Below, piece by piece: positions 5,392 to 54,912 of a DNA stretch of 64,000 bases. The notes under the pieces were generated by a model. The model saw nothing but the letters and a program-made list of their open reading frames with translations. It was not told the origin of the DNA and ran no database searches. Origin of the DNA: a virus. The stretch lies in IMG/VR virus record IMGVR_UViG_3300025009_000052. One strand, given 5' to 3'. Position numbers and translations under genes: made by a program. Position 1 is the first letter of the stretch. Each line of letters opens with the position of its first letter.

Positions 5392-5613
5392 TTATGGTCT
5401 CAAATTATTTTGTGTACTTTTAATTTTCATCCATAATTTTTTATACCAAGGCAGTTCGAGATATTCCACCCTAGCATGAATATCAACGTATTTTCTAGTG
5501 GTTTGGGCAAATACCTTATTCATTTCAACCACAGACTTAGCCAAGTCGGGGTCGTCGAGTACTTGGGACAATTTAATTTCTAAGTTTTTAAATATAATAT
5601 TACTTTTTTCCAT
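5392..5613 (-). CDS. Hypothetical protein
   Basis: 73 aa, start overlaps the chaperonin stop (TAATG). Confidence 0.6.
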   Translation of the reverse strand: MEKSNIIFKNLEIKLSQVLDDPDLAKSVVEMNKVFAQTTRKYVDIHARVEYLELPWYKKLWMKIKSTQNNLRP

Positions 5614-10472: not shown

Positions 10473-10586
10473 ATGAAAAAAGTTTCTTTAAACAATTGGC
10501 TACCAACAATACTAACTATATTACAAATAGTCCAAATAATATGGCAGTTGTGGATTGGCATATTACCACATTTTACAATAAAATAG
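10473..10586 (+). CDS. Putative 37-aa hydrophobic peptide
   Basis: Hand translation MKKVSLNNWLPTILTILQIVQIIWQLWIGILPHFTIK; fills an intergenic gap. Confidence 0.35.
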   Translation: MKKVSLNNWLPTILTILQIVQIIWQLWIGILPHFTIK

Positions 10587-12156
10587 ACCATCTTTTTTTA
10601 CCACAATCCCAAATTCTGTATAATTCTAAGGACATGGCTAATTCTTTTTCAGTATTAGCCATAGTTCCTACAGCGCCTTTCTTTAAAAGTAAATCTTTTT
10701 TATTGCTTTGTTTGCTTTGTCTAGTCATATCTGGAGCGACGTAACTGTAATCTGGAAGCAAGTGTTCAACAAGCTTAAAACCGCATTTTTCATAAACAGT
10801 CCCTTCTGAGTATCTATTATCTGACCAGGAGATCAATTCTTTATAGCCCATATCTTTAGCATATTCCGTTAGTTTTTTAACTAATCTAGAAGCCCCTCCT
10901 AATATTTGAACGCCGTCTTTAAAAACTAAACGATTTAAAACAAACGGAGTTCCTTCACCCTTCTGTCTATGGTGAATGTTTCCAGTAACTAATCCTAACA
11001 ATTCGTCTTCAAAATAAAGGCCAAAAGCAATTTTAAAAGTGGTTTTACCTTGTATATGATGGTCGTCTAGGAATTTAGCAGCAATTGATCTTTCAACTTC
11101 TTTTAATTCGCATTTTCTAGCGTAGATTTTTCTATCATAAATCCCTAAAACAGACTTGAGATAGTTTTTAACTTGGGAGTTTCTATCTAACCACTCGTCT
11201 TCAAATATAGTTATAAGGCGAATTCCTTGTTCGTTAGCTTGTTTCATTTTGTCGTAGTGATAGTTGTGGTTTTCAGCATGTTTGGGTATTCGTTCCGAAT
11301 GCCAGTGTAATCCATTATACTCAATGGCCAAATTTAAAGATGGGATGTAAATATCAAGTTCTTTACCTTTAGTTTTCCCCTTAAATCTTAATTTTTCAGC
11401 ATGGAACCCAAATGAAGTTATCCAATTGTGGACTATCCCTTCGGTTTTAGAGGTTCCGTTACAAGAACAATGACCACAATCTTGTGAGTAAAAATTAGTT
11501 AATCTATTTTCTCTTATAAAACCACATTTATCATGTATAGCTTTTAATGGAAACCTTTTTATAGAATAAGACTCTTCTATTAGCGTATATCCTAGGGCTT
11601 TTAACTGATCACGAACTTGATCGATAGTTAGGGTTTTTCCGCATTTGTTTCTAGGATCTCCTTGGAATATTTTAGCAAACGCTTTTTCGTAAATAAATCC
11701 GTCAGGTGCCAATATTGTGACGAATGTATTCTGGGAACTTATTATTTTATGAGATTGGTCTGGTAGTCTTTGTTGTAATATATCTATAGGAAGGGAACAA
11801 TCTTCCTTGTGGGCGTCAAACTTACCTCTTATAACCGCCCTATATTGTGGATGTTGATTTAATATCTTTTTAGCGGTTTCTGGGTGTATTTCTAATTGCC
11901 TAATGGTTTGATTTAATTTTATTTTTTGATTATCTTTTAGGGCTTGTTCTAACACTAATAGAAATTTATTTTGTTTGTCGTAATGCTTTTTGCCTAACCT
12001 ACTGACCATATTTATATTGTATTTTTTTATCCAATAGTTAATGTTTTGTCGGTCAATTTTTAACTCAGCCCCTATTTCATTTTGATTATAGCCCTCGGAT
12101 GCCATTTGTGTAATTTTTTCTAAAATTTCTGGTGTTAGTTGTGATTGATAAGACAT
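10573..12156 (-). CDS. Hef-like free-standing homing endonuclease (HTH + PD-(D/E)XK/Vsr-like + C-terminal domain)
   Basis: ELDIYIPSLNLAIEYNGLHWHSE, LITIFEDEW, IYARKC, SWSDNRYSEG, IWDCGK; start at MSYQ with RBS and own TGTGGTATAAT promoter. Confidence 0.8.
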   Translation of the reverse strand: MSYQSQLTPEILEKITQMASEGYNQNEIGAELKIDRQNINYWIKKYNINMVSRLGKKHYDKQNKFLLVLEQALKDNQKIKLNQTIRQLEIHPETAKKILNQHPQYRAVIRGKFDAHKEDCSLPIDILQQRLPDQSHKIISSQNTFVTILAPDGFIYEKAFAKIFQGDPRNKCGKTLTIDQVRDQLKALGYTLIEESYSIKRFPLKAIHDKCGFIRENRLTNFYSQDCGHCSCNGTSKTEGIVHNWITSFGFHAEKLRFKGKTKGKELDIYIPSLNLAIEYNGLHWHSERIPKHAENHNYHYDKMKQANEQGIRLITIFEDEWLDRNSQVKNYLKSVLGIYDRKIYARKCELKEVERSIAAKFLDDHHIQGKTTFKIAFGLYFEDELLGLVTGNIHHRQKGEGTPFVLNRLVFKDGVQILGGASRLVKKLTEYAKDMGYKELISWSDNRYSEGTVYEKCGFKLVEHLLPDYSYVAPDMTRQSKQSNKKDLLLKKGAVGTMANTEKELAMSLELYRIWDCGKKRWSILL

Positions 12157-12295
12157 AAAACCTCTTTTGTTATATAATCTATTATACCACAAACTAATAT
12201 AAAATGATCTATATTTTATAAAAATAATTTAAAATAAAAACGAACCTTCGCGTCTATTTGTTAATTTAAAGGTCGTAATTGGCTAATTGTTAGAA

Positions 12296-12346: not shown

Positions 12347-13735
12347 TTAACTTAATTGACCAGAAATGTTTTCAAAAAGGACGTTTTTCCTTGGCTGATA
12401 GCCCGCGAGGCATTTGAAAGAAAAGTGCGCCTCGGGCAAGCTTAAATCGTGGAGAGCAAGTTTTAATCGTGAATATGGAGCTAATTGGTGAAAACCAAAA
12501 GTATTGGTTTGGAGCAAGAAACCAGTTACAGAACCTGGCTCTTTAAAGCCCAAATCTACGAAACTAGTTGCGCCTGATCCACTAGCTTTTACTCTACCGA
12601 TAAATTTAGCAGCAGCGGCAGTTCCACCATCAGCAGATCGGTATACGTTAAAATATTTACAACCGGTTACGGCAGCGATAGCTAAAGTAACTTTTTGGCC
12701 AGCAGTAGGAGATACTTGAGCAGAAGATGTAGAAACACTCTCGCCTCTTTCGTTACAAGCGGTAGCTTTATAGTAATAATCTCCAGCAGCCAAAATAGAA
12801 GCTGCATCGTTAGCTGCGGTAGGAGTTACTGTAGCAGGGGCAGCAGGTGAGCCGGCTCTACTTCTAGCAGGAGCGGTTTTACCAGAAAGAAATCTTGAAG
12901 GTTCTAAACTAATTGTACCGTTGGATGTCCATTGGGTTCTTAGGTTAGCGCCCATAGCTTCCTGAGCAGAACCAGCAAGCATGATTCTTTCTTTTGCGTG
13001 AGCAATTTTATTATAAGCAGAAAGAGAAATCGGGTCTAGCATCAATTTATCAGCAGAACCATGATTCATAGCACTTTTAACAGCTCCGTCCTCGATAAAC
13101 GATTCGGTCAAAGTACCGTTAACTGCGATAACTACTGTTTGGTTTGATCCGTATTCTGCAAACATAAGGTCTTGAGTGTTAGAAAGAGAATCTGAAAGTC
13201 TAACTTGCATATCGACGCCTTGCATTCCAGGTACGTCAGCGATTACAGCAGGGTTTCCATCGAAAACACCTGAGTTAGAAAAATCAGCTTGTCCTCTAAA
13301 ACCGTCAAATTCGATATCAGCAGATAGTTTTATAGCAGCGTCGTTTCCGGCTCTGGTTTCAGCTTTTTGGCCATCAAATGCGGCAACTAAATTAGCAGCA
13401 ACACTTACTCTACGAACTGTAGAATAATAAGCCATAGGTATGGTGATTCTTGAATAATTAGAAGTATCCTCTTCGCCAATTCCACCCTCATACTGAGCAG
13501 ATCCGCCGAAAATTCCGTAATCTAATTGACGGTTAAATTGTACCAAAGTACCTTTTGCGTCTTTAACTGAGAACATTTTTTGCAATTTAATTTGTTTGTC
13601 GTCAAAACAAACATTTTCCATAACTGGGGATAGATCTTCAATCTGAAGAGCCGATCCTTGTTGTAAAGAACTTGGTGCTGCGTTGTAACTACCAGCTTCC
13701 AAGGCTTTCATAAGGTCATTCAATTGGTTTACCAT
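12347..13735 (-). CDS. Major capsid protein (SPO1/Twort-like)
   Basis: LMKALEAG...GSALQIEDLS N-terminus, 462 aa, C-terminal Ig-like insertion, follows the scaffold. Confidence 0.9.
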   Translation of the reverse strand: MVNQLNDLMKALEAGSYNAAPSSLQQGSALQIEDLSPVMENVCFDDKQIKLQKMFSVKDAKGTLVQFNRQLDYGIFGGSAQYEGGIGEEDTSNYSRITIPMAYYSTVRRVSVAANLVAAFDGQKAETRAGNDAAIKLSADIEFDGFRGQADFSNSGVFDGNPAVIADVPGMQGVDMQVRLSDSLSNTQDLMFAEYGSNQTVVIAVNGTLTESFIEDGAVKSAMNHGSADKLMLDPISLSAYNKIAHAKERIMLAGSAQEAMGANLRTQWTSNGTISLEPSRFLSGKTAPARSRAGSPAAPATVTPTAANDAASILAAGDYYYKATACNERGESVSTSSAQVSPTAGQKVTLAIAAVTGCKYFNVYRSADGGTAAAAKFIGRVKASGSGATSFVDLGFKEPGSVTGFLLQTNTFGFHQLAPYSRLKLALHDLSLPEAHFSFKCLAGYQPRKNVLFENISGQLS

Positions 13736-15262: not shown

Positions 15263-16417
15263 ATGGATACTTTATTAGGTACTTATTTGCATGGCATTGG
15301 GTCTACTACCGATTTGGATTCAAGTGGTGAAAGAGTTAAAATAGAAGGAATTGATATATCTTCAGCTACACAGGATGGAACGATAAACTTTGAGCATAAG
15401 TCCGAAGAGCCATCGCAGATTGTTGGGAAGATCCTTGAGGTTAAAAAAATATTGAAAAAAGACGATTGTGAAAATGAACACCATGAGTATTTTTGGAAAA
15501 AAGCCGGTGAAAGGCCCTATCTATATGTTGCAGGAGTATTGTTCGACAAGTTCAATCACCCCGGAGCTATCAGTATAGCAGCTATGTTAAAGTTCGATCA
15601 GTTAACTGATAAGAAAAATACCAAACATGTTGTTAATTTTAGTATTGAAGGTTCTAGACTAGATAAGAAAGGTATTTGGATAGAAAAATGTATAATGAGA
15701 AAAATAACTGTAACCACCGCTGCATGTAATAAAATGTGTATAGCGGAATTACTAGAGAAACCGTCAAAAACCAAACTTATATCGAAAGAGTCATTATTTG
15801 ACATTTTTAAGAAATGTGAGGAAGTGGAAAGTAATTTAAACAAATCCGACACTCAACCCAAATTTAAAAGTAAACTATCGTTTAAACTAAAGCCAACAAT
15901 TTCACCTAAAGAAAATTTTAAGCCACTAACCCCTATGTCTACCCCGGCAAAAGAGGGCAAACCTATAATACCTAAAAGAACAATATCCTCTCAATCAAAT
16001 AAAGAATGGAAGTTAGGAGACAGGATAGTTCCGTCAAAAACCACTAAACCAAAAACTGGTAAGGATATTTATAGTAATCCTAATACTTGGAAATCTGAAG
16101 GAAAAAAGAAAAAATTCTATATGTCTAATATTCAAAAGGCCTTAATAGCTAGCTGTAGTGACTCTGCCCCATCTAACTTAACAGGTATGTCGGCTCTAAC
16201 TAAAGAATGTTTCGGTAAAAAACAACTTGATAAAATTTTTAAAACACTGTCAGACAGTGCTTTTGAAAGGTTGGACAAAAAAGAAGATTTAGTTAAGTTT
16301 ATTTCGGAAAAGTTACCAAAACTTAATGAAAACGAGGTTTTAGCTATCGCTAAGGCTGTAGCCTATATTAAGGAAAAAAAGAACGAATTGAAATTATCCG
16401 AAATGATTAAGGAATAA
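15263..16417 (+). CDS. Prohead (maturation) protease with C-terminal extension
   Basis: GIGSTTDLDSSGE, INFEH, IVGKI, FSIEG (His/Ser of caudoviral prohead proteases). Confidence 0.82.
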   Translation: MDTLLGTYLHGIGSTTDLDSSGERVKIEGIDISSATQDGTINFEHKSEEPSQIVGKILEVKKILKKDDCENEHHEYFWKKAGERPYLYVAGVLFDKFNHPGAISIAAMLKFDQLTDKKNTKHVVNFSIEGSRLDKKGIWIEKCIMRKITVTTAACNKMCIAELLEKPSKTKLISKESLFDIFKKCEEVESNLNKSDTQPKFKSKLSFKLKPTISPKENFKPLTPMSTPAKEGKPIIPKRTISSQSNKEWKLGDRIVPSKTTKPKTGKDIYSNPNTWKSEGKKKKFYMSNIQKALIASCSDSAPSNLTGMSALTKECFGKKQLDKIFKTLSDSAFERLDKKEDLVKFISEKLPKLNENEVLAIAKAVAYIKEKKNELKLSEMIKE

Positions 16418-16419
16418 TT

Positions 16420-16821
16420 ATGGCTAAGGAAGGAAGGGATTCTAATCGAGTTGCTGCTATTTTAATTAGAGACTGTCTGGACAATATATTAATGGGCCAA
16501 AGGAACGATGGTAGTGGTTGGGCTAATCCTGGCGGTCATTTGAAAGTTGGCGAACAGTATTTTGAAGGAGCGCTAAGGGAACTTAAAGAAGAAACTGGGC
16601 TAGACGCTGTTGAGTTAAAACTAATTAAAATGCATAAATACGGGAAAATATTGGTTTATTTGTTTGAAGCTAAAGTTGGTATAGAACAAGATATAGACAC
16701 ATCTGGTGACCCGGATAAAGAATTTTCCACCCTAAAATACTGTGACCCTAACGATATTAAAGAAGATCTACACGTTCCTTTAGAAAGGAATGCTGTTATG
16801 CAATATTGGATGGAGAGTTAA
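16420..16821 (+). CDS. Nudix hydrolase
   Basis: Nudix box GGHLKVGEQYFEGALRELKEETGL. Confidence 0.93.
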   Translation: MAKEGRDSNRVAAILIRDCLDNILMGQRNDGSGWANPGGHLKVGEQYFEGALRELKEETGLDAVELKLIKMHKYGKILVYLFEAKVGIEQDIDTSGDPDKEFSTLKYCDPNDIKEDLHVPLERNAVMQYWMES

Positions 16822-22620: not shown

Positions 22621-24489
22621 ATGGGTAGGGGAATCAAAATACTAATAGATAAAGACCGACTAATAGATTTATATCTAAACCAAAACAAGACTATACCCGA
22701 AACAGCTAAGGAATTGAATTGTGGCCACACTAGTATTATAAGATATCTCAAGAAATACAATATTACTAAACCCTTAGAGTTAAAACACCAAAATGTTTCG
22801 AGATCAAATCGAAGAATAGATCATCAAAAGTTAATTGACGACTATTTGGTTAATAAAATGCTTACTCCTGAAATAGCTAAAAAATATAACACCAATGTAT
22901 CGTCTGTTGCAAGGATATTGTCCGATCACAATGTTGATGTGGACGATCGATATAGGCAATACCGAAAAAAAGTAGCCGACGACAATATTCCCTATAAAGA
23001 TATTATTGAATTGTATATTAATCAAAATAAGACAGCTTTAGAGGTGGCAAATATTCTTAAAATAAGTGAATTTAAAATTAGAAAGTGTATGGATAAAATA
23101 GGCACAAAGAAAACGAAAGAAATGTGGACTAAGTTAAATACTAATAAAGACACGCAATGGGATTTACTAAAAAATCCAGAATGGTTTTACCAAAAATATA
23201 TTTCAGAAAACAAGACTATAATTGAGGTTGCTAAGGAGGCTGGGTCAACCATTAGAATGGCTAGGCTTTATCGGATTAAGTATGGTTTTAAAAAGAGTAC
23301 CGAGCAGAAGGGTAGTTTTTTACAAAAAAATAACAGTAATGTTAAAGATAAAGAATGGCTATATCAAAAGTATATTGTAGAGAATACTAGAATTATCGAA
23401 ATAGCCGAACAGGAAAATATTAGTATGTGGTTGGTTGAATATTATATTCATAAGTTTAACCTACACAAAAGCCATGCGCTCAAAAGAAAGCTTAGGATAG
23501 AAACTAATATAAGCAGGGGGAACCAGACTTGTATTTTTGGGCAAACGATCGATGAATTGGCGGAACAATACAAATTATCACATTCTTTTACTTGGTCTTT
23601 GTTTAAGAGGAATTCCTTCTCCACCTATGAAGAATTACACTCTTTTTTGGCTAAAATCAGTATAGATAGATTTACTAGTTTAGAACTGTATACCAATAAG
23701 CTTTTGGGGCTAGAGAATTATAATCAAAAAGCACACCTCACATTAAACTATAAGCCGGATTTCAAAATAAGTGACATTTTATATTTAAACGTTGATGGTT
23801 TGTATTGGCACTGTGAAAAAGAGGTGGACGATAGTTACTATCATTTTACCATGAGACAAAAATATGAGGAGTTAGGTCTGCAAATTCTCCAATTCCGTGA
23901 AAACGATATTTATAAAAATCCTGAAATAGTCAAGTCTATTGTGAATAATAAGACAAATACTAATATTGCAACTATCTACGGTCGTAAAACTGAAATTAAA
24001 GAAGTAAAAACTGAGGACGCTAAAGAATTCCTAACTAGGTGCCATTTAAAGGGCTATTTTTCGGGAAAACACATAGGTCTGTATTATAATGGCAATCTTA
24101 AGAGTGTGCTAAGTTATAAGATTTACGATAAAAACACCCTTAAAGTTGAAAGATTCTGTACAGATTTGAATACTAGAATTATTGGTGGGTTCTCTAAGTT
24201 ATTAAAATATTTAGAAAGAAATGAGAGTTTTAAAGAAGTTTATTATTGGGTTGATTTAAAGTATGGAACTGGTAAATTTTTAGAGCAATTGGGATTCCAA
24301 CACTCTCACGATACTTTAGGTTGGGAATGGACGGATAAGTTTGATACCTTTAATCGTAGAAGGTGTCGGGCTAATATGGATGAGAGGAAGCTTAAAGAAC
24401 GTGAATATGCCAATGAATTAAAATGGTATAAGATTTACGATGCTGGTCAGAGGTTATTTGTGAGGAAATATGTACAAACTACTACTTAA
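22621..24489 (+). CDS. Second Hef-like homing endonuclease with repeated HTH modules
   Basis: Repeated LYQKYI..NKT..EIA units; KPDF...NVDGLYWH, IYGRKT, YWVDLKYGTG, IYDAGQ. Confidence 0.78.
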   Translation: MGRGIKILIDKDRLIDLYLNQNKTIPETAKELNCGHTSIIRYLKKYNITKPLELKHQNVSRSNRRIDHQKLIDDYLVNKMLTPEIAKKYNTNVSSVARILSDHNVDVDDRYRQYRKKVADDNIPYKDIIELYINQNKTALEVANILKISEFKIRKCMDKIGTKKTKEMWTKLNTNKDTQWDLLKNPEWFYQKYISENKTIIEVAKEAGSTIRMARLYRIKYGFKKSTEQKGSFLQKNNSNVKDKEWLYQKYIVENTRIIEIAEQENISMWLVEYYIHKFNLHKSHALKRKLRIETNISRGNQTCIFGQTIDELAEQYKLSHSFTWSLFKRNSFSTYEELHSFLAKISIDRFTSLELYTNKLLGLENYNQKAHLTLNYKPDFKISDILYLNVDGLYWHCEKEVDDSYYHFTMRQKYEELGLQILQFRENDIYKNPEIVKSIVNNKTNTNIATIYGRKTEIKEVKTEDAKEFLTRCHLKGYFSGKHIGLYYNGNLKSVLSYKIYDKNTLKVERFCTDLNTRIIGGFSKLLKYLERNESFKEVYYWVDLKYGTGKFLEQLGFQHSHDTLGWEWTDKFDTFNRRRCRANMDERKLKEREYANELKWYKIYDAGQRLFVRKYVQTTT

Positions 24490-25681
24490 AACAATCGAAA
24501 AGCAAAAAGAAGATAAACTCAATTTTATCAACAATTTACATAAAAGTATTGGTGAAAAACCCAATGCTATTTTAAATCGACAACCTCACTTTATATTTTC
24601 CACTGAAAATCCCAGATACCCTACTAAAACCAAAATGACTCATGAGGATGTCTTAGATCTTTTGAGAGACAAGGGTTATGATGCTCACGAAATGTATGGG
24701 GTGGATGAGATTGAGGGAAAATATGGAGATAAAGAAAAAAGTATTTTAATTCACAATCCACATATTAGATCAATACCTCATTTACACCAATTAGTTCAAG
24801 CACTTGGACAAGAATCAAGCCTATATTCTTCAGGACTAAACAGCGAACTTCACTTCCATTCAGGCCCAAATGCCGGTCAACATATGAAAGGAACTGGAAC
24901 AGATATTCCTAAAGTTAAGCCAAATGATAATTATTCCGAAACAAAAGACGGTATGGTTTTCCAACACAACATGGATCACGAAAATCTATATCCGATGTCC
25001 GAATCTATGTTAAAAATGAAACCTACTAAGATTAACAAATCAGAGTTTTATGCTAAAAATGGATTTTATTTATGTAAAAATCAGGATAAGCATCCTTTAG
25101 AAGACCATAATCCAGATACTAAATTGATCCACTACTCCCCCCAACAAGGATTAACCGAATTGGATCCAGAACATCACGGGGTCAGGGGAATAGGTTCCGA
25201 AGCTAAACAAGGTAAACCGGAACATCCAATGTCTTTCTTTTATTTAGAAAATACTGAGCCAGAACATATTGTAACATCTGGATCTAAAAGTAAATACATT
25301 ACTTCTTTAGGTAGTAAAAAACTTTATGATATTGGCAAAGATAGTCATAATTTGTGGAGTCAAGCTGAAGAAATTGCTCAGAAAAGACAGACCAATCCTG
25401 GTGTAGTTAGAAAAGAAGATTTCCACAATGCTATTAGAAATGCTGGTTACCATGGAATCTATAATTCTAGCTTAGGCGATACCATGAAAAATGTGGTCGG
25501 GATGTTTGAAAAAATGCCAATTGAAAAAGAAGTTCCAATGCATCCGATGGATTTTAAAAGAACTACTAGTTTTGATCACAACAGTAATAAACAGATTCAC
25601 AGTAGTGCAGAACAATACGCTAATGAATTTGGACACCACGATCCTAAGTTTTTGGCAAAATTGAAAATGTCCTTGAGGTAG
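24470..25681 (+). CDS. Putative internal head protein: SAM-lyase-like + ART-PolyVal-like domains
   Basis: FIFSTEN..H..VL..LR..EGKYG..EKSIL..GQESSLY; then LIHYS...LDP...FFY...LYD...AGYHGI; LHKS/INKS junctions. Confidence 0.55.
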   Translation: MYKLLLKTIEKQKEDKLNFINNLHKSIGEKPNAILNRQPHFIFSTENPRYPTKTKMTHEDVLDLLRDKGYDAHEMYGVDEIEGKYGDKEKSILIHNPHIRSIPHLHQLVQALGQESSLYSSGLNSELHFHSGPNAGQHMKGTGTDIPKVKPNDNYSETKDGMVFQHNMDHENLYPMSESMLKMKPTKINKSEFYAKNGFYLCKNQDKHPLEDHNPDTKLIHYSPQQGLTELDPEHHGVRGIGSEAKQGKPEHPMSFFYLENTEPEHIVTSGSKSKYITSLGSKKLYDIGKDSHNLWSQAEEIAQKRQTNPGVVRKEDFHNAIRNAGYHGIYNSSLGDTMKNVVGMFEKMPIEKEVPMHPMDFKRTTSFDHNSNKQIHSSAEQYANEFGHHDPKFLAKLKMSLR

Positions 25682-25683
25682 TT

Positions 25684-28491
25684 ATGGCAGTTAGAAAAAT
25701 AAAACACCCTATATTGAATCCCGATAAATCTATTAACCATACAAAAGTTAGGAAACATATTAAATCCGACCTGTTTACTCCCGAGGAATATGTCAATATG
25801 CTTTCTGGGCATTATCATGACGACCTTACTGCCGATGCGGTTCCAGAGCCATATTTAAAAAACAAACACAATACACCAGAAAACAACGCAAAGGTTTTAA
25901 ACAAGTATCTAAAAAGATTAAAAAATAGCGGTAAAAAGTCTGAATATGGGAACCCTAATTCAGAAAATATCAATAAACTAATTAGGCGATATAAGCTACC
26001 TAGTTCCACTATACATAAGTTTATTGAGAATCCAAAGTCTTTTGGAAGTAATCCTAAAGATAAGTACTGGACACCTCAAGTATCGGAGATAAATCCAGAT
26101 AGCTTGGAAAAAGAGCACCTATATAAAATCGCAGCTAAACATCCTGATAAGTTAAGTGATTATATTGACCATCAACATTTTGACGATAATTTAATTAAAA
26201 ACCATTTACTCCACAATAACAAATCTCTAGGTGGTTTAGATAGTGGTGTTATTTCAAAACTGGCCGCTAATCCAAATTTACACGGTGGAGATGCTTTAAA
26301 AATCTTAGAAAGTTCGCCTACCCATCAGATTAGTAGTGAGACGGCAGGGAGGTTATTAGATAAAATACCTGAAAACGAACGTCACGAATTTATCGATAAA
26401 ACCTTAGGTATAACTGGTGGACACCACAATGACGAATTTGATGAAGAAAGCCTGAGAGAGGGTGGGGTAAGTGAAGAAGATATTCAGAAGGCTAAGGATA
26501 ATTGGAATGAGGATGATAATTGGGACGCATGGAGAGATGGAATTAATCATAGCCCACAATTAAGTGCTAAATTTGCTGGTTACGATAAATTAAAAGACCA
26601 TCAAATAGACCATATTATGAGACATGGAGATACTGACTCTAAGATCAAACTGTACCACAATGAAAAAATAGATCCTAAATATGGCTCTAAAATGTTGGAA
26701 AAATGGTATAACGACGATAGTCATCATGGTTATGACTCAGAACATTTGAAGGATTTTTTAAAAGAAGAAAATAGAGATTTTGTTTGGGAAGATTCTTTTG
26801 AAGAGGGTACTGAAAAAGCTAGGAATGATTATTCGATAGGTGAATATCTTAGTGATAATAGAAACGATGGTATGAGTGATGAGGATATTGCGGAATATGA
26901 AGAAAATGGGAATCTCCCAGATCATGTCTATGAGGGCTATGATCAAGTTATAGACGAAAGAGCTCAGGATTATATAGACGGCATTATGGACGATCATTTT
27001 GATAATTCTTTAGAAAACGAAGATTATATTCCCAATCATATTAAAGAACACTCACCGATTGTAAAGCAGCTTAGAGAAAAAAGAAGAGCTAGGGAAGATA
27101 ATAAAGCCCTAGAACAGGCCCAAGAAGAAGAGGATAACAATAAAGACTTTTTGGACCAGTCTGTACCAAAAAGAACTCACGAACATGAATACGGCGAAAA
27201 TCTACACCAACATGAAATGCTTAAGGATTATGCAGATCAAAACGGTGGTTCTATTGATGTAGGTAAAATGCACAAAATGTTTCCTAATTTAAAAGATACT
27301 TGGAAGCAAATATTTGGAAACCAAGGGAAGCTTTCTTCTAAGGAAATTCAAGAAAAGATAGACCAAATTCCTAAAACCAAATACAACGTATCCTATCGGA
27401 ATTGGGATGGAATGCAGAGAACCAATGGTAATGAGCAGGTGGTTTTTAGATTAGACCATAGTCCAGAATCTTTATCTAAGCTAAAGGAAGATCCTGAATT
27501 GTACGATACTTTTAAGAAAGTACAAGAGGTTTCTCAAAGAAGCGGTCACCCAACTAACTTAAATACTATTGGATGGGCTCGGGTTGACACAAGTAATCCA
27601 AAACACTGGCTTACAGATGAATTACAAAGCGACTTCGGGTCCACTGCTAGGGATTATTTAAAAAGAGAAGGAGCCCATGATAAGGCTGGACACATGGATA
27701 AGATAATTCAACACCATAAAGATTGGCGTGAAAATTTATTAAATTTAGTTATCAAAGAAGCTAAAAAACACGGTGTTGAGAAGGTATCTACCCATTCTCC
27801 TGAAAGTAAAGCCGCCCATACTGGAGCCGATAAAGCCCATTCTGTCTACAATGATAGTTACAAGAAAGTACCTCGTAAGATGGGTTTTTTACCATCTAAA
27901 GCTGATAGCTTACCATTAGATGACGAAGGTAGGGAAGTTTTCATGAGTAAGAAGGGAAATGCAGATGATTTTGAAAATCACCAAAATGCTTTTAATTTTC
28001 ACAATAATATGTACCACGCTCACCATAGTAATAATCTAGATCAAGGTGCTTTTGACGATCCTCATATGGGTACTAGATTTAGTTTAGCAAATAGCCATAA
28101 AACATTAGCTACTCAGCATTTAGATAGGATGCGACAAATTGATCCTACTATTAAATACAATAGTTTAAAAAATCAATTAAAACCCGAAGCTATTAGTTTT
28201 AACTCAAAGCCATATGCTGGTGAATATAAAAACAGGGCTGACGAAAATCTATCTGCTAATAAGGTAGAGAGCCATAGTCATGACCTCCTATTAGAAAACA
28301 AACCTATTGTAGCCGAATCTCACCCAGCCCATACCCTTGACCTAAGACCTAAAATAATGCAAAAAACTATGCAAATAGCTGATTTATTGTTAAAAACGGA
28401 ATTAGCTTACTTCTTAGGCAAACAAAAGAATTTAGAAGTTAACCATTTGCTTAAGAATGTGGTAGAATTAAGGAAGAGCTTAGGTTATTAG
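25684..28491 (+). CDS. Large putative internal head protein: helical repeats + GNAT-like domain
   Basis: KLAANPNL-type repeats; IGWARV...DELQSD...LLNLVIKEAKKHGVEKV...RKMGF; C-terminal MQKT/LLKT/LRKS. Confidence 0.5.
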   Translation: MAVRKIKHPILNPDKSINHTKVRKHIKSDLFTPEEYVNMLSGHYHDDLTADAVPEPYLKNKHNTPENNAKVLNKYLKRLKNSGKKSEYGNPNSENINKLIRRYKLPSSTIHKFIENPKSFGSNPKDKYWTPQVSEINPDSLEKEHLYKIAAKHPDKLSDYIDHQHFDDNLIKNHLLHNNKSLGGLDSGVISKLAANPNLHGGDALKILESSPTHQISSETAGRLLDKIPENERHEFIDKTLGITGGHHNDEFDEESLREGGVSEEDIQKAKDNWNEDDNWDAWRDGINHSPQLSAKFAGYDKLKDHQIDHIMRHGDTDSKIKLYHNEKIDPKYGSKMLEKWYNDDSHHGYDSEHLKDFLKEENRDFVWEDSFEEGTEKARNDYSIGEYLSDNRNDGMSDEDIAEYEENGNLPDHVYEGYDQVIDERAQDYIDGIMDDHFDNSLENEDYIPNHIKEHSPIVKQLREKRRAREDNKALEQAQEEEDNNKDFLDQSVPKRTHEHEYGENLHQHEMLKDYADQNGGSIDVGKMHKMFPNLKDTWKQIFGNQGKLSSKEIQEKIDQIPKTKYNVSYRNWDGMQRTNGNEQVVFRLDHSPESLSKLKEDPELYDTFKKVQEVSQRSGHPTNLNTIGWARVDTSNPKHWLTDELQSDFGSTARDYLKREGAHDKAGHMDKIIQHHKDWRENLLNLVIKEAKKHGVEKVSTHSPESKAAHTGADKAHSVYNDSYKKVPRKMGFLPSKADSLPLDDEGREVFMSKKGNADDFENHQNAFNFHNNMYHAHHSNNLDQGAFDDPHMGTRFSLANSHKTLATQHLDRMRQIDPTIKYNSLKNQLKPEAISFNSKPYAGEYKNRADENLSANKVESHSHDLLLENKPIVAESHPAHTLDLRPKIMQKTMQIADLLLKTELAYFLGKQKNLEVNHLLKNVVELRKSLGY

Positions 28492-28538
28492 CTATCTATT
28501 AAATCTTAATCTATAATCTATTGTGAGGATTTATTAAA

Positions 28539-31500
28539 ATGGATAAGTTACAGGATTTACTAGAAAAAATAGAAGAAGTAATAGAGCAAGATCTTCAGAA
28601 ACAACATATTTCCGATCTCTTCAAAGGTGGTAAAAAAGCTAATATCGGCGAAACCAGAACTTGGGATGGAAAAGACTATATCAAAACCCAAGATGGTTGG
28701 GACTATGTTGCTCAGGGGCATGAGCCAAAAACTAATGAGCAGCCTAAACAACCTCCAGAAGTTCAAAAACCAGTTTCAGATATTAAAACTCCTCATGAAG
28801 TAAAATCTCCAGAGCCTCAAGTATCAAAGCCCCAGGAAGAAACAGAACAAACGAAAGAAGTTGTTGAGTCACCAAGACAAGAAATTTCCGAAACCTCAGA
28901 AGAAAAACAAGAAGAATATGTAAACGCTCGTAAATCCAAGGTTTCTAACTTGGGTAAAGATATAAAAGGCTCAGCTAGACATAAAAGACAATATAGCTCT
29001 ATTAAAGATATGGGAACTGCCGAAATATCCGATATTACCGTTAAAAACCTATTGAAACAATTCCCTATCAATCTAATAGACGATGTAGCTAAGGACAATC
29101 CAATTATCCCCTATGTAGCCAACCAAATTTTAAATAGATTTCCTGCTAGTCCAAAACACGAAGTTCAAAAAGAAATGTATTTGGAAACTTTTGAATATGT
29201 TAGAAATAGAGTTCAAGAGCTGTCTAAACAAAAAGACTTATTATTTACCGACGTTATTTCAGCTATCCAAAAAGAAATTGTTGCTAAGATTAAAGAAAAC
29301 AGGGCTTCTGAAAACTATGTAAGAGGTTCCGACGACTTCTTAGTTCCCTATGTAAATAAAACCTTAAATTTTAGAAAAACAAAGGGCTCTGTTGGTCAAG
29401 ACGTTGAGGATTTAGTAAATGCTTTTGCTAGAACACTACCTGAATCCGATCAGGATGGGTTAAGTGTTGGTTATATGCTTAAGGAAACTAGACAAGCTGC
29501 TATGGCTGAATTTTATACCGAAGAGGGCGTAAGAAAAATAAAAGACTTGGTGGAAGGAAAGTCTTTAAGTAAAGTTTTTGAAATAGTCTCAGAAGGTAAA
29601 AAATCTAAAAAGTTTTCTGTAGCCGAGATCTATACTCAAGACGCTAAAAGAACTGGCCCAGATACTAAATTAACTACCGAAGAAGACCAAGCTAATTTTA
29701 TTATAAAATCCTGTGAAATGAAGGGTTTACAGTGGGGAAATAGTGTTACTGACGAAGAAAGAAAACACCATTTGAAAATGTCTTCCGAAGCCTTTAAGGA
29801 TTTGGCAGATATATTAGACTTACCCGAAAAAATGATTTCATTTAATGGTAGGTTAGGGTTAGCAATTGGAGCCAGAGGCCACGGAACTGCTTTAGCTCAT
29901 TATGAACCAAAAGAAATTGCTATTAATTTAACTAGGTCGAAAGGTGTCGGATCATTGGCTCATGAATGGGGCCATTTTTTAGACAATATTTTATCCAAAA
30001 CTCATGGTGTAAATGCTCACCCAGAAAATCAATTCTTATCCGAATCTGCTGTTTGGAATATGGGTGATAAATCTCCGGTTCAAGAATCTATGAAAGAATT
30101 GGTTAAATCAGATGCTTGGAAAAGCTTTAAAGACTCTACCCGTGATGCTCTTAATGATTTAGCTAAACACGGAATTAAGGAAAAGCCTAGCTATTGGATG
30201 TCACCTAAGGAATTATTCGCCAGAGCTTTTGAAGGATATATTAGTTATAAATTAAAATCCAAAGACAGAGAAAATACATATTTATCTGGTGGCAGCGAAG
30301 GTTTAATGTGGTGTACCAAGGAACAAAAAGAAAAATTGGCACCATATTTCGATAAATTTTTTGAAGAATTGAAAAAATCAGATCATATTAAGAAGGCTAT
30401 GGATTTAGAAAACGATTTGCAGAAAGGAAGTCTTCAAAGTAAAATGGGTAATCCCAAAAAACAATTAAGACCTCAAGAGACTAATACTATGATCAATTGG
30501 GTATCAGAGCAGCAACCTAGGGAAAATATCCCAGAAGCCACCAATAAAGCCAAACAGAGGTTTTTTCATAAGCTACATTCTCAAACAGAAGTAAAAAAAC
30601 ATCCTAAAACTGGGGAGAGAATGTTTTTAATGCATAGGGGTACTGAGACTGATTCGGACACACACAATACATCACTATCATCTTGGACGCCAAACTACAA
30701 TATAGCTAATGATTTTGCCGACAGTATTGACGACGATGGTACGAAAAGTACAGTTCATTCTGCTTGGATACCAGAAAGTGCTATTCATAATTACATACCG
30801 AATTCAATTGATAGAGATATTAAAGAATACGATGAGTTAATCCCGAGAGAGCAGGAGTACATCGTTAAGCCACATAATTTTTTACATGCTAATTGGCAAA
30901 AATTACCTAACAAAGAAGGACTTGATCGTAAGATAAACTGGAAACAGCGAATATATGGTAAAGGGGGTAGGCTGGCAGCCGGCGAAAATATAGAAAATGA
31001 TTTGACTAAATCTAAAATTAACGCAGATGAAGAAGGTGAAATAATTAAGAAAAATAAAGAAAAAGCTGAGGCCAAAAGAAAACACAAATTTAAAGCTGCT
31101 CAGTGGACGCACCCAAATGGACACCCAAGATGTATTATTTGTGGTGACGAAGAAAGGATTGATGGATATTGTAGTCCATCTTTAGATAAATCCCAAACTA
31201 AATGGCATAAAAGAAACGGTATTTTACAGAAAAGTTGGAGAAAAGCTATTGCAACAGGAGCCGCCCTATCAACAATGTTAGTGGGAGCCCACAATATGGG
31301 TCAAAACAAAGAACCTGGCAGGCAACCTTCTTCTGTTGATCAGTCTCAAATAAACCAAGTAAAAATTGCCCCAGACCATGGTTTAAAATCTGACATGTTA
31401 CATAATATTAAGAATAATCCTATTGTTGAAAACAATGTTTTACCTAAAGGTAGGTTTGGACAATATAGCCTGTCTCAAAACGCTATTAAAAGTGTTTTTA

Positions 31501-31781
31501 ATAAAAACCAAACATTAGGTGAAAGGTATGGCCATTTATTAAAACTTTCCCCCAATGAATTAGATCAACAACTAAAAAACGATCCTAATTTAGACCATCA
31601 ATTGGCAGATTCTCATTGGCATAATTTACAGAGTGAGTTTGGAAACAAACCTGACCATATAGCCCATGCTTGGTATCAAAATCCAGAGAATACCAGACAG
31701 GAAAGCCAACTTAAGGGAGGTGATTCTAATTTTAATAATCACTTCTATGTGTCCAAAATCATTAAGAATCTTAAAAAATAG
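28539..31781 (+). CDS. Large polyvalent protein: DdrB/LPD1 zincin + R-S-E ADP-ribosyltransferase + lysozyme-like domain
   Basis: LQWGN...LAIGARG...AHYEP...SLAHEWGHFLD...ELFARAFE; HRG...SSWT...EQEYIV; FGQYSL...AHAWYQ...YVSKI. Confidence 0.75.
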   Translation: MDKLQDLLEKIEEVIEQDLQKQHISDLFKGGKKANIGETRTWDGKDYIKTQDGWDYVAQGHEPKTNEQPKQPPEVQKPVSDIKTPHEVKSPEPQVSKPQEETEQTKEVVESPRQEISETSEEKQEEYVNARKSKVSNLGKDIKGSARHKRQYSSIKDMGTAEISDITVKNLLKQFPINLIDDVAKDNPIIPYVANQILNRFPASPKHEVQKEMYLETFEYVRNRVQELSKQKDLLFTDVISAIQKEIVAKIKENRASENYVRGSDDFLVPYVNKTLNFRKTKGSVGQDVEDLVNAFARTLPESDQDGLSVGYMLKETRQAAMAEFYTEEGVRKIKDLVEGKSLSKVFEIVSEGKKSKKFSVAEIYTQDAKRTGPDTKLTTEEDQANFIIKSCEMKGLQWGNSVTDEERKHHLKMSSEAFKDLADILDLPEKMISFNGRLGLAIGARGHGTALAHYEPKEIAINLTRSKGVGSLAHEWGHFLDNILSKTHGVNAHPENQFLSESAVWNMGDKSPVQESMKELVKSDAWKSFKDSTRDALNDLAKHGIKEKPSYWMSPKELFARAFEGYISYKLKSKDRENTYLSGGSEGLMWCTKEQKEKLAPYFDKFFEELKKSDHIKKAMDLENDLQKGSLQSKMGNPKKQLRPQETNTMINWVSEQQPRENIPEATNKAKQRFFHKLHSQTEVKKHPKTGERMFLMHRGTETDSDTHNTSLSSWTPNYNIANDFADSIDDDGTKSTVHSAWIPESAIHNYIPNSIDRDIKEYDELIPREQEYIVKPHNFLHANWQKLPNKEGLDRKINWKQRIYGKGGRLAAGENIENDLTKSKINADEEGEIIKKNKEKAEAKRKHKFKAAQWTHPNGHPRCIICGDEERIDGYCSPSLDKSQTKWHKRNGILQKSWRKAIATGAALSTMLVGAHNMGQNKEPGRQPSSVDQSQINQVKIAPDHGLKSDMLHNIKNNPIVENNVLPKGRFGQYSLSQNAIKSVFNKNQTLGERYGHLLKLSPNELDQQLKNDPNLDHQLADSHWHNLQSEFGNKPDHIAHAWYQNPENTRQESQLKGGDSNFNNHFYVSKIIKNLKK

Positions 31782-31816
31782 TTTGATTTGAATTAGCTTC
31801 TGTGGTAATATATAGT

Positions 31817-32299
31817 ATGGGATTTAAATATTTTTTAACCACCGCCTTATTATTAGTTACAATATGTACTTTTGGGGAAAACGATAACCCAAAACGAACC
31901 TACAGACAGATCTTAAAAAATAAGCCCAATATAGATAAGAAATATGCGACTAAATTAGCTAAACTTATTGATAGACATAGCATAAAACATAAGATACCAG
32001 CCCATATCTATACCGCCATATTAATGCAAGAAAGTGGGTATAAATTGGGCGCTAAAAGGTGTATTAAGAAGTGTACTGATTTTGGGATTAGCCAAATTAA
32101 CCATAGAACAGCGAAAAGCTACAACCTAGATAGGTCTAAATTACTGAAAGACTTAGACTATTCGATTTGGGCCGGTGCTATGGTGTTGGCAGATTTTAAA
32201 AGATACAAAAAAACTGAAAAGCGTTGGTGGTCAAGATATAATGCGTCAAGTAAACATAAAAGACTGGAGTATGAAAAACTAGTTAAAAGGTATTTTTAA
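31817..32299 (+). CDS. Lytic transglycosylase (SLT) with N-terminal signal peptide
   Basis: AILMQESGY (catalytic Glu), DFGISQIN, RYN; MGFKYFLTTALLLVTICTFG leader; own leaderless promoter. Confidence 0.88.
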   Translation: MGFKYFLTTALLLVTICTFGENDNPKRTYRQILKNKPNIDKKYATKLAKLIDRHSIKHKIPAHIYTAILMQESGYKLGAKRCIKKCTDFGISQINHRTAKSYNLDRSKLLKDLDYSIWAGAMVLADFKRYKKTEKRWWSRYNASSKHKRLEYEKLVKRYF

Positions 32300-39479: not shown

Positions 39480-40781
39480 ATGGAAAATATTAACAAAAAG
39501 TATACAGCAGCAGAAGCGGCTATTAAGATTTTAGACCATGTTAAAAAAATGTATCAAAATAGTAACTTAAAAAAATCAAATACTGCTCATGAAATTGAAG
39601 CTGGATCGGAGCCCGTTACTCAAAATACTGAATGTCCCGAGCAATTAGCTGCTAGTAAATCACTTAAATCTGCTAAGAAAAAACATAATGATAGTGGAAA
39701 TACTGAATTAGATGGTGAGTCAGAAGACATTGATAATGAAGATGTTGAGTCAGAAGATGGTGAAGAGATTCCAGATCATGAGCAAGGCTTATCTCCTGAG
39801 GAAAAAGAAATTCATGACTCTACCGAGTCCGAAAGTGACGAAGAAGAATTAGAACAGCAAGCAGATGCGGAAGCTCACGAAAGAGACGAATATGACGACG
39901 ACGATATTGAAGAGGAAAGTGAGTCTCCAGAACAACAAGAGGGTGACGAGAACGTAGAAGAACATGAAAAATTAGAATCCGAAGTGGAAGACAATGAAAA
40001 AGATGAAAAAAAAGACGGCGAAAAAATAATTGATAAAGTAACTAAGGACAAAAAACCAGCTTTTATGAAAGCCGAAGTAGATAAAGCTTGTGGATTAAAG
40101 TCCCCTAAATTAGGTTCTTTTTTAAAAAAGAGGGAATTAAAGAAAGCTATAGTTGACGAGGGCAAGTCCGATGATAAAAAAAGAGAAGATAGAATAAAAA
40201 GAGGAAACGATAGAATAGTTGTTGGTTCTCAGAAAGTTTTTGGTAGAGATAAAGGTGTTCATAAGCCGTACCATGGAGAAGGATCTTCAAACGTAGGTGA
40301 AAAAACCAGATTTTCTAGGAAATATAAAGAAGTTCCTGCGATTAGACGTGCAACACAAGAATCTGCCAAGGATGAGGTTAAATTAAAAATAAATGAACAA
40401 AAACAAATGAAAAAACCCAACCTTCCTAAGTCAGAAGAGGCTAGTTTAGAAAAAGCTAAGCCAGCTAATAAGCCAAGTAAGGATATTAAACATATTTCTG
40501 AAAAAAGATTACAAGATAGGGATAAATTTAAAGAACAAAGAGAAGCTGGCAAAGACCCTATCCAACAAATGAGAATTGCCAATAATAAAAAGAAAGCTGC
40601 TAAAAAAGTAGTTATTGTAGATAAAGAAAGGGGTAATAAACAATCAAGAAAAGTGGTAGCCACTAAGAAAGTGGAAAAAATGTTAGGGATGAGTAATTTA
40701 CCTAGCAATTCTGGTAACCCCAAAGATGCTTATAAGAAACCAGAAACCCCAAAACCACCTAAAGTAAACGAAGGGTATTAA
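39480..40781 (+). CDS. Disordered acidic/basic putative internal head protein
   Basis: LKKS, FMKA, VDKA, LKKA, LPKS, LEKA punctuate low-complexity segments. Confidence 0.6.
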   Translation: MENINKKYTAAEAAIKILDHVKKMYQNSNLKKSNTAHEIEAGSEPVTQNTECPEQLAASKSLKSAKKKHNDSGNTELDGESEDIDNEDVESEDGEEIPDHEQGLSPEEKEIHDSTESESDEEELEQQADAEAHERDEYDDDDIEEESESPEQQEGDENVEEHEKLESEVEDNEKDEKKDGEKIIDKVTKDKKPAFMKAEVDKACGLKSPKLGSFLKKRELKKAIVDEGKSDDKKREDRIKRGNDRIVVGSQKVFGRDKGVHKPYHGEGSSNVGEKTRFSRKYKEVPAIRRATQESAKDEVKLKINEQKQMKKPNLPKSEEASLEKAKPANKPSKDIKHISEKRLQDRDKFKEQREAGKDPIQQMRIANNKKKAAKKVVIVDKERGNKQSRKVVATKKVEKMLGMSNLPSNSGNPKDAYKKPETPKPPKVNEGY

Positions 40782-54350: not shown

Positions 54351-54468
54351 AAAATTGTGTTCCATTTCTTCTTTGAAGTCTTACATTAATTAACGATGGT
54401 TCTCAATAAATCTTATTGTATATCTATTTTACTAATTTTTGTGGTATATAGATGTATATGGAGGAATT

Positions 54469-54912
54469 ATGTCGAAAATTTCCTTAAATGACGATGGAAC
54501 TGCAACGTTTTATATCAATGTAGTTGGTGAAAATTCTAAAGAAACATACTTAGGTACATTTACTGTAAAGTGTTTTTTATCCCCTTTAGAGTTTGTAAAG
54601 GCCGATAAGCTTTATAGAGATTTACTGGGCCCAGATTTACAGAATGCTCATTCAGTAGCTAGAAGTACTAGTTTTGCGTTCGCCCAATTACAACAAAGAG
54701 TTATTAAATGTCCTCCCTTTTGGGAAAATAAAGAGATTGGCGGTGGACATATAAAAGATAATAACGTTTTATCAGAAGTTTTAGAGCTATCATTCATGGC
54801 CCAAGACGAGTTTGTAAAAAGTAAAGAAAGGGAAGTTGAAGATATGCAGAAATCTTTAACAGATAGTATAAGAAACGGCAAAATAGCTAAGGAAGATACT
54901 GGCGATGAGTAA
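54469..54912 (+). CDS. Probable tail assembly chaperone
   Basis: Y.GTFTVKC.LS......D...R.LLG...L..RVI..P.FW pattern of myophage pre-tape-measure chaperones. Confidence 0.5.
   Translation: MSKISLNDDGTATFYINVVGENSKETYLGTFTVKCFLSPLEFVKADKLYRDLLGPDLQNAHSVARSTSFAFAQLQQRVIKCPPFWENKEIGGGHIKDNNVLSEVLELSFMAQDEFVKSKEREVEDMQKSLTDSIRNGKIAKEDTGDE

Follow-up and report, generated by a model that had tools for sequence, protein, structure and literature searches.

A predicted polyvalent protein of an Mx1-like phage is a mosaic of effector-type modules bordered by candidate L-x-K cleavage sites

Introduction

Polyvalent proteins of phages were defined by Iyer et al. (2017; PMC5512222), whose main text names the metallopeptidase (MPTase) as their main hub, proposes that the MPTase cleaves itself, and notes lysozyme/transglycosylase and ADP-ribosyltransferase (ART) domains, the ARTs being described as H-Y-D type (Tox-ART-HYD2). 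In that main text, the word "linker" is absent and "prohead protease" occurs only in the title of a reference. Here we describe a 1080-amino acid (aa) open reading frame (ORF) of virus record IMGVR_UViG_3300025009_000052, analyzed within a 64,000-nt stretch of that record (hereafter the window), whose product is predicted to combine zincin, ART-fold, His/Cys and transglycosylase-like modules; aa numbers refer to this ORF unless another protein is named.

In phage T4, internal proteins bear an N-terminal capsid targeting sequence that is removed by the gp21 head protease at L/I-x-E, and Alt is an R-S-ExE ART that is injected with the DNA. Packaging of T4 Alt in the head is described in both PMC5512222 and PMC9503650, the latter also describing ARTs of the Alt/VIP2 type as fused to MuF and ARTs as frequently head-packaged. 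The SPN3US protease gp245 cuts at AXE, and 13 of its 14 mapped sites remove N-terminal propeptides (PMC10052503). Proteomics detected gp47 of phi24B, a 2811-aa protein with LPD5, LPD1, LPD38 and MuF-C domains, in virions, and this protein was proposed to be an ejection protein (10.64898/2026.04.10.717836). A search of open-access text found no published effector polyprotein punctuated by protease sites.

Results

The 1080-aa protein consists of a short leader followed by an N motif (N), a helical domain (A), a zincin (Z), an ART-fold module (R), a His/Cys module (H) and a C-terminal module (C), in the order N-A-Z-R-H-C (Table 1). An earlier note, made from the DNA letters alone, had described it as a string of separable effectors at 28539..31200. 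The ORF was correctly recognized, but its end was placed 581 nt short of 31781, so the C module (aa 899-1080) had been missed. The short motifs listed there were all found in place: LFKG at aa 27 (nt 28617), HEWGH at aa 475 (29961), LKKS at aa 611, IKKA at aa 617, LQKG at aa 627, HRG at aa 699 (30633), SSWT at aa 714 (30678), EQE at aa 771 (30849), LTKS at aa 822, HKFKAAQW.. at aa 849, LDKS at aa 882 and LQKS at aa 896.

The proposed separability was borne out, in that the ART, His/Cys and C modules recur in other orders, copy numbers and carriers. A comparison of domain order, which the note had recommended, revealed many arrangements among 246 relatives, namely R, R-R, R-R-R(-R), R-C, R-R-C, H-R, R-H, R-H-R, C-R and Z-H, as well as A-Z, N-A-Z, N-A-Z-R and N-A-Z-R-R. 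The order N-A-Z-R-H-C was present in none of the 246, a result that holds for the collected proteins, with whole-protein relatives sought at 594-1890 aa; the set is biased, these same modules having served to gather it. Judged from these sequence comparisons, the polyprotein is a mosaic of separable modules. It is very probably a polyvalent virion protein: it combines several unrelated effector-type domains (zincin/LPD1, ART-fold, transglycosylase-like and His/Cys) with an LPD1/MPTase hub, as in the class defined by Iyer et al. (2017), and it is encoded among late genes, with the major capsid protein (MCP), protease and terminase genes in the same window.

Many of the module borders carry a short motif ending in lysine, written below with a slash after the lysine. 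In its strict form, [DNES][LIMF]xK before G, S or A, the motif occurs six times in the ORF, where 1.14 occurrences would be expected, and none of 400 shuffles reached six; for the loose form, [LIVMF]xK[GSA], 10 occurrences compare with 5.05 expected, and 2.65% of 2000 shuffles reached 10. One strict site, ELVK/S (aa 520-524), falls within the zincin domain and probably does not mark a junction. Relatives show an extended linker, K-L-A-A-[SN]-E-x(3-5)-[DN]-L-x-K/[GSA], with RLAAGENIENDLTK/S as its counterpart in the 1080-aa protein. In the 82 copies examined upstream of the ART module, L occupied position -3 in 66, K position -1 in 72 and G position +1 in 77, and the complete h-x-[KR]/[GSA] was present in 70. 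Similarly, h-x-K was found within 24 residues upstream of the His/Cys module in 25 of 27 cases and downstream of it in 15 of 24, against a background of 0.38 per window of this size.

The motif was also detected in head proteins. It lies at residue 10 of the MCP, the Mx1 counterpart reads MANGLIEKLEELRK/AMEAGNF (ELRK/A), and all 55 MCP relatives in IMG/VR carry L-x-K-A 9-13 residues from their start. The prohead protease, our candidate cutter, is 30% identical over its aa 9-183 to the N-terminus of the Mx1 protease and has NLNK/S just after the domain, at its aa 191. Short leaders with the motif at their end were also seen in other window genes. Because the motif recurs at MCP residue 10 and just after the protease domain, we favor cutting by the head protease, and we consider cleavage at L-x-K by this enzyme moderately probable from the sequence patterns. 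As a separate observation, the C-terminal part of the protease (its aa ~288-352, NIQK/ALIASCSDSAPSNLTGMSAL) resembles the N-terminal arm of the MCP (DLMK/ALEAGSYNAAPSSLQQGSAL), and a 1240-aa Mx1 "prohead protease" holds an equivalent internal copy (SFAK/AMEAGNFNAAPS); this segment may be a capsid mimic used for targeting or docking.

An exhaustive HMMER search of 1.84 billion representatives returned 274 relatives of the ART module at E<=1e-3, 94 at E<=1e-10 and 14 at E<=1e-30. The 153 proteins analyzed (150 listed matches and three earlier relatives) yielded 210 ART domain matches, with one match in 104 proteins, two in 43, three in 4 and four in 2; these copy counts are upper bounds because some two-match cases are a single split domain. 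Across 106 aligned copies, R700 and W716 and W743 were conserved in 100%, S715 in 98%, and E771 and E773 in 99% each. In R-S-ExE ARTs, the Arg lies on strand 1, Ser-x-Ser/Thr on strand 2, and Glu-x-Glu at the start of the strand that follows the ARTT loop; the ExE motif points to arginine as the target residue. An AlphaFold model built on a 25-sequence alignment (mean predicted local distance difference test [pLDDT] 78.1, predicted TM score 0.70) placed R700 within a strand and S715 where the following strand begins, while E773 opens a strand preceded by a poorly ordered loop; H-R700-G, S715-W-T and E771-Q-E773 fall on model strands 67-75, 87-90 and 146-149. In this model, residue order and strand positions fit the R-S-E ART (Alt/VIP2-type) layout.

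When the ART model was compared with 48,161 chains by VIA-align, the highest Z was 4.6, and a second look reached Z 4.9 with a similar picture. By title, 38 of the top 50 rows were ARTs, PARPs, diphtheria- or pertussis-type toxins, or Tpt1/KptA, the other 12 being unclassifiable by title; the longest alignments were to the R-S-E toxins Vis, iota-like, C2-I, VIP2, C3 and Certhrax, covering 112-123 residues including the N-terminal helices. Since the tool itself warns that a Z below 8 may reflect a common arrangement, the ART fold is likely rather than proven. Because of the invariant residues and the weak fold matches dominated by ART-type entries, we assign the module, with fairly good confidence in the model-based reading, as an ART-fold enzyme. 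The R-S-E ART proposed in the earlier note thus holds in its conserved residues, their expected strands and the ART-dominated matches, but not in any sequence likeness to Alt, and with Z below 5.

No PHROG or NCBIfam model matched the ART module, its profile had no match among PDB sequences, and tblastn of the segment against 50,697 GenBank phage records found none. The profile recovered the module as a single copy in its own genome, which served as the positive control, and returned nothing from the whole Mx1 record. Two candidate relations were rejected: one to T4 Alt by hhalign, a spurious 16-column match, and an ESM Atlas lead to DUF4765 (0.94, 165 shared features), which was below the stated reliability level and which Pfam did not confirm.

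Apart from the 1080-aa protein itself, a local search of 248 collected proteins found 23 carriers of the C module, which lies no more than 30 residues from the C-terminus in 21 of them; it is near the N-terminus in P0061 and internal in P0102. The structural model of the module had a pLDDT of 67 overall and 83-95 for segment residues 80-165. Its best fold matches were MltC (Z 8.3, root-mean-square deviation 2.7, 103 residues aligned), Cj0843c and Slt70 (both Z 7.0) and MltE (Z 6.8), followed lower down by phiKZ gp144 (Z 5.5) and T7 gp16 (Z 4.5), and ranks 1-9 were all lytic transglycosylases. In Foldseek, the same model had no match at E<=1e-3; Slt70 appeared at E 4.7. According to the model, the C-terminal ~115 residues have a family-1 lytic-transglycosylase-like, lysozyme-like all-helical fold. 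Of the 24 C modules aligned, 12 have the sequence V-E-S-S-G-G...Y-G-L-[TM]-P, which contains the equivalents of E-S and G-L-M-Q. The 1080-aa protein has I-V-E964-N-N and G-Q-Y-S-L, E964 sits in a poorly modeled stretch, and the alignment leaves the equivalence of this IVEN with the IVES of relatives ambiguous. The C-module profile matched aa 1060-1228 of a 1480-aa Mx1 "NUDIX hydrolase" (E 1.1e-21) directly after ELSK/S; phmmer of the modules against six Mx1 proteins gave none at E<=0.01.

With aa 826-1080 as the query, 29 proteins of 47-82% identity were retrieved, of which 27 carry an HPxGxPxC core. The core of the His/Cys module, WTHPNGHPRC..CG..E....G.C, follows a helix of the form A-D-x-E-[ST]-x-x-I-x-x-N-K-x-x-P-E-A. 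Its carriers include proteins with portal, MuF, S78 prohead-protease, DNA-ligase, 2H/LigT, NUDIX, GNAT, mCpol or LPD1 domains, in which the module is N-terminal, internal or at the extreme C-terminus. No Pfam, PHROG or NCBIfam family covers it, and the ESM Atlas gave nothing above 0.89. Because it has three His and three Cys, the module probably binds zinc or another metal.

In the N-terminal part, the length of the leader varies among relatives (11 aa in P0003, none called in P0002) while its end motif is the same. The N motif has the consensus G-G-K-K-A-x-I-G-E-x-R-x-W-x-G-x-x-Y-x-K-x-x-x-G-W, and aa 9-85 match phrog_4272 (annotated function unknown; E 6.4e-5). ANIGETRTW..GW had been taken for a module of its own, a view that was not upheld: in all 12 relatives having the N motif, it lies N-terminal to the A/Z block, with h-x-K preceding it in 10, and none of the proteins gathered via the ART or His/Cys modules contains it. 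Wherever the helical domain occurs in relatives it stands directly upstream of the zincin, and it has invariant columns in the alignment. We regard the N motif, the helical domain and the zincin (aa 30-613) as a single unit on this sequence pattern.

The DdrB/LPD1-like zincin of the earlier note was confirmed as to LPD1 and HExxH, but it resembles P1 DdrB only weakly (E 0.13 around HExxH when the zincin profile was compared by hhalign). Pfam LPD1 (PF18796) matched aa 548-614 at E 6.5e-14 (52.2 bits against a cut-off of 27) and recognized only the C-terminal part of the zincin; PHROGs 616 and 18947 cover aa 368-622. The NCBIfam model CLCA_X (NF041907) aligned to aa 371-611 over profile positions 3-245 of 250 (E 1.1e-30), and with 106.9 bits against a cut-off of 260 the zincin appears related to CLCA_X while falling below the membership threshold. 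H475, E476, H479, E558 and E565 were invariant in all 12 aligned sequences, and the homologous block in a Stx phage is ~37% identical over aa 371-582. Against PDB sequences, the zincin profile found only chance matches (E>=0.21) and the whole 1080-aa protein found none.

The virus record is complete (155,481 bp, with direct terminal repeats), and the window has a GC content of ~34%. Its MCP shares 51.6% identity with the MCP of Myxococcus phage Mx1, and by sequence the virus is an Mx1-like phage (myovirus) of 155 kb. The 1080-aa ORF has one full-length match within its own genome. Its gene is part of a same-strand late run with tail-fibre-like, virion structural and SLT genes; the window also codes for a terminase, a GroEL-like chaperonin, the MCP, the prohead protease, tail-fibre-like and virion structural proteins, an mCpol-domain protein and methyltransferases. 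Promoter and terminator scans performed no better than on shuffled sequences. Since the SLT gene lies directly 3' of the polyprotein gene, two transglycosylase-type units adjoin in this phage; the 165-aa SLT protein (31802-32299) has a hydrophobic segment at its N-terminus.

Relatives of the 935-aa protein encoded upstream precede ART and C modules within one chain in P0185, P0193 and P0093; the 403-aa protein is represented by its two halves, found alongside such modules in P0103, P0112, P0094 and others. The 403-aa and 935-aa genes look like split versions of modules that are joined in one chain in relatives; the 935-aa protein ends in VELRK/SLGY and has no Pfam or PHROG match. Two further window proteins are rich in the strict motif: a 433-aa protein (39480-40781, +), acidic and then basic in its low-complexity sequence and without a family match, has four sites against 0.57 expected and could be a scaffold or internal head protein, and a 157-aa ORF (54439-54912, +), outside the virion run, has three against 0.17 expected.

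Elsewhere in the window, the large terminase subunit (1632-5108, -; 1158 aa) contains a LAGLIDADG homing-endonuclease-type insert at its aa 446-629, probably an intein, and the GroEL-like chaperonin is encoded at 5613-7376 (-; phrog_5725, E 4e-93). A stand-alone NUDIX gene (16420-16821, +) lies directly 3' of the prohead protease. Two large paralogous HNH/homing-endonuclease-like genes are present at 10573-12192 (-) and 22621-24489 (+) (phrog_3339, phrog_559), one of them just upstream of the effector genes.

Table 1. Features of the polyprotein and of the related genes discussed here. Coordinates are those of the window unless another record is given.
Feature	Coordinates	Strand	Residues and motifs	Basis or remark
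Major capsid protein	12347..13735	-	starts MVNQLNDLMK/ALEAGSY, motif at residue 10	phrog_752
Prohead protease, candidate cutter	15263..16417	+		phrog_1028 head maturation protease
Upstream genes	24470-25681 and 25684-28491	+	403 aa and 935 aa	same module pool as polyprotein
Polyvalent polyprotein ORF	28539..31781	+	1080 aa	GAGGA ~10 nt 5' of ATG, resembling a ribosome-binding site
Leader	28539..28625	+	aa 1-29, ends DLFK/G	motif position
N motif	28626..28718	+	aa 30-60, GGKKANIGETRTWDGKDYIKTQDGW	present in 12 relatives
Low-complexity P/E/K/Q-rich linker	28719..28943	+	aa 61-135	sequence reading; no family match
Helical domain (A)	28944..29633	+	aa 136-365, opens with conserved N-x-G-x-D-x(4)-A-R-H	no Pfam match
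Zincin metallopeptidase with LPD1 C-terminal part	29634..30377	+	aa 366-613; HEWGH aa 475-479	HEWGH at 29961-29975
Junction cluster	30378..30425	+	aa 614-629; ELKK/S, IKK/A, DLQK/G	motif positions
ART-fold module	30426..31010	+	aa 630-824, ends RLAAGENIENDLTK/S	R700 at 30636-30638; S715 at 30681-30683; E771/E773 at 30849-30857
His/Cys module	31011..31190	+	aa 825-884 (60 aa), ..HKFKAAQWTHPNGHPRCIICGDEERIDGYC.., ends SLDK/S	flanked by DLTK/S and SLDK/S
Spacer (14 aa)	31191..31232	+	aa 885-898, SLDK/S to ILQK/S	motif positions
C module	31233..31778	+	aa 899-1080	G/A/S-rich hydrophobic helix 31245-31289; lytic-transglycosylase-like fold 31434-31778
Downstream SLT-domain protein	31802..32299	+	165 aa	Pfam SLT PF01464, E 4e-7; phrog_342 (internal virion protein with endolysin domain)
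Mx1 "NUDIX hydrolase"	24404-28843 in OR576727.2		1480 aa	C module internal

Discussion

We consider it reasonably probable that this gene encodes a late polyvalent polyprotein that is packaged, cut by the prohead protease and ejected in pieces. In such a scheme, the polyprotein would enter the prohead, where the prohead serine protease would cut after L-x-K at K29, at K613 and/or K629, and at K824, K884 and K898. The products would be a unit of ~66 kDa comprising the N motif, the helical domain and the zincin; an R-S-ExE ART of ~22 kDa; a 60-residue His/Cys peptide that probably binds zinc; and a piece of ~20 kDa with a membrane helix and the lytic-transglycosylase-like fold. On infection, the pieces would leave with the DNA, whereupon the transglycosylase-like piece may act at the wall or membrane, the ART may modify a host protein, and the zincin may act on host or cargo proteins. 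One leader might serve the packaging of all these activities, as the earlier note suggested.

Several observations weigh against this interpretation. We infer packaging, cleavage, ejection and the enzymatic activities. As to the cut sites, the L-x-K-G before the ART module continues straight into a conserved GSLQRR, so the motif could be part of the ART domain; in the MCP, close relatives conserve the N-terminus on either side of the motif, which leaves no contrast between a variable leader and a conserved site; the loose motif is common by chance, at 0.38 per 24-aa window; and strict motifs occur in likely non-head proteins, namely an HNH-type endonuclease (two) and the ORF at 54439-54912 (three). 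As to the ART, the fold scores are weak (best Z 4.9), the model had no Foldseek match in PDB or BFVD at E<=1e-3, Pfam found nothing in the query (E<=10), in 28 relatives or in the 25 alignment members, and hhalign of the profile against T4 Alt gave a probability of 0.07. As to the C module, Pfam SLT did not match it at E<=10, the catalytic Glu is not confidently placed, and the E-S motif is absent from 12 of the 24 C modules, including the one studied here.

The chain might instead be packaged and delivered whole, with L-x-K as a mere linker habit or a trace of cassette recombination. The chance frequency of the loose motif and its possible membership in the ART domain would suit such a protein, and N4 vRNAP, which also carries an MPTase, is packaged unprocessed (PMC5512222). 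However, the motif borders unrelated modules (N, ART, His/Cys and C) in many lineages, recurs at the MCP N-terminus and at the end of the protease domain, and exceeds expectation in the ORF about as six to 1.14, and we find delivery of an uncut chain rather unlikely. The motif's presence in the MCP and the protease likewise speaks against self-processing, in which the protein's own zincin would cut the chain either ahead of packaging, which has been proposed for P1 DdrB, or once it has been ejected into the host, with the prohead protease uninvolved. CLCA proteins are self-cleaving metalloproteases, and the zincin spans nearly the whole CLCA_X profile with its HExxH..E residues intact. Autoproteolysis of the MPTase has also been proposed, and processing of DdrB to 76 kDa cited (Iyer et al. 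2017, PMC5512222). Most motif-bearing relatives, however, have no zincin in their chain (83 are R-only, 33 R-R and 13 R-C), although a packaged zincin could still cut in trans; self-processing strikes us as distinctly unlikely.

A product that stays outside the virion, such as a late cytoplasmic or envelope protein that serves lysis or superinfection exclusion through its helix and transglycosylase-like end, with the enzymes attached as accessories, is in our view highly improbable. A hydrophobic helix next to a muralytic-type fold does resemble signal-anchor-release endolysins, and packaging itself is inferred. Yet the gene has virion genes as neighbors, other phages join its modules to portal, MuF and prohead-protease domains, virions of phi24B contain an LPD1 homologue, and a separate SLT protein is encoded next to it.

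A broader picture can be sketched only tentatively: Mx1-like and many uncultured phages might carry a "cargo train" in which L-x-K/[GSA] is at once the cut site of the head protease and the joint at which cassettes are swapped, duplicated (up to four ART copies) or split between neighboring genes. The usual end of such a train would be the piece with the membrane helix and transglycosylase-like fold, and its cassettes would include a large unnamed R-S-ExE ART family and the His/Cys module, the latter a possible adaptor that ties cargo to the portal, DNA or protease.

Polyvalent proteins and head-packaged ARTs are known already as ideas. What is new here is an R-S-ExE ART-like family without a model and, within the reach of tblastn, without members in cultured phages, a conserved His/Cys cassette, a terminal helix with a transglycosylase-like piece, and a junction shared with capsid and protease. 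Three modules are thereby defined that have no Pfam, PHROGs or NCBIfam model, the ART-like enzyme alone accounting for 274 representative clusters. The release of polyvalent domains has hitherto been left to proposed self-cleavage, and the junction motif offers a testable alternative; cultured Mx1 has retained the motif in its capsid protein as well as the terminal module, which makes cleavage accessible to experiment.

Compared with the polyvalent proteins described in the main text of Iyer et al. (2017), the present protein is likewise a large late protein with an MPTase/LPD hub, a probable ART and a candidate peptidoglycan-cleaving domain, predicted to be delivered together with the DNA, and its family shares their extensive domain shuffling and multiple ART copies; unlike theirs, its ART-like module is R-S-ExE rather than H-Y-D. 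Its zincin/LPD1 block is homologous to that of phi24B gp47, but phi24B is a podovirus whose protein has other domains, with no ART, His/Cys or C module and no junction motif reported for it. P1 DdrB has an N-terminal ddrB-ParB domain and a C-terminal MPTase, and in it Pfam finds PF18763 (ddrB-ParB) alone, without LPD1; PF18763 is absent from the 1080-aa protein, and the two domains occur together in the relatives P0046, P0050 and P0069. The fold of the C-terminal piece is shared with family-1 lytic transglycosylases and the N-terminal domain of T7 gp16, and is preceded here by a hydrophobic helix. In phiKZ and SPN3US, a large number of head and ejection proteins are processed by the prohead protease, which also cuts itself, and some propeptides are cut more than once (PMC10052503); unlike in SPN3US, the sites described here would part functional domains, and both the motif and the protease lineage differ. 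With T4 Alt and the T4 internal proteins, the protein shares the R-S-ExE arrangement and a short leader ending at a hydrophobic-x-charged site, but here the motif ends in Lys rather than Glu, and several cargo modules follow in one chain where T4 has one leader per protein.

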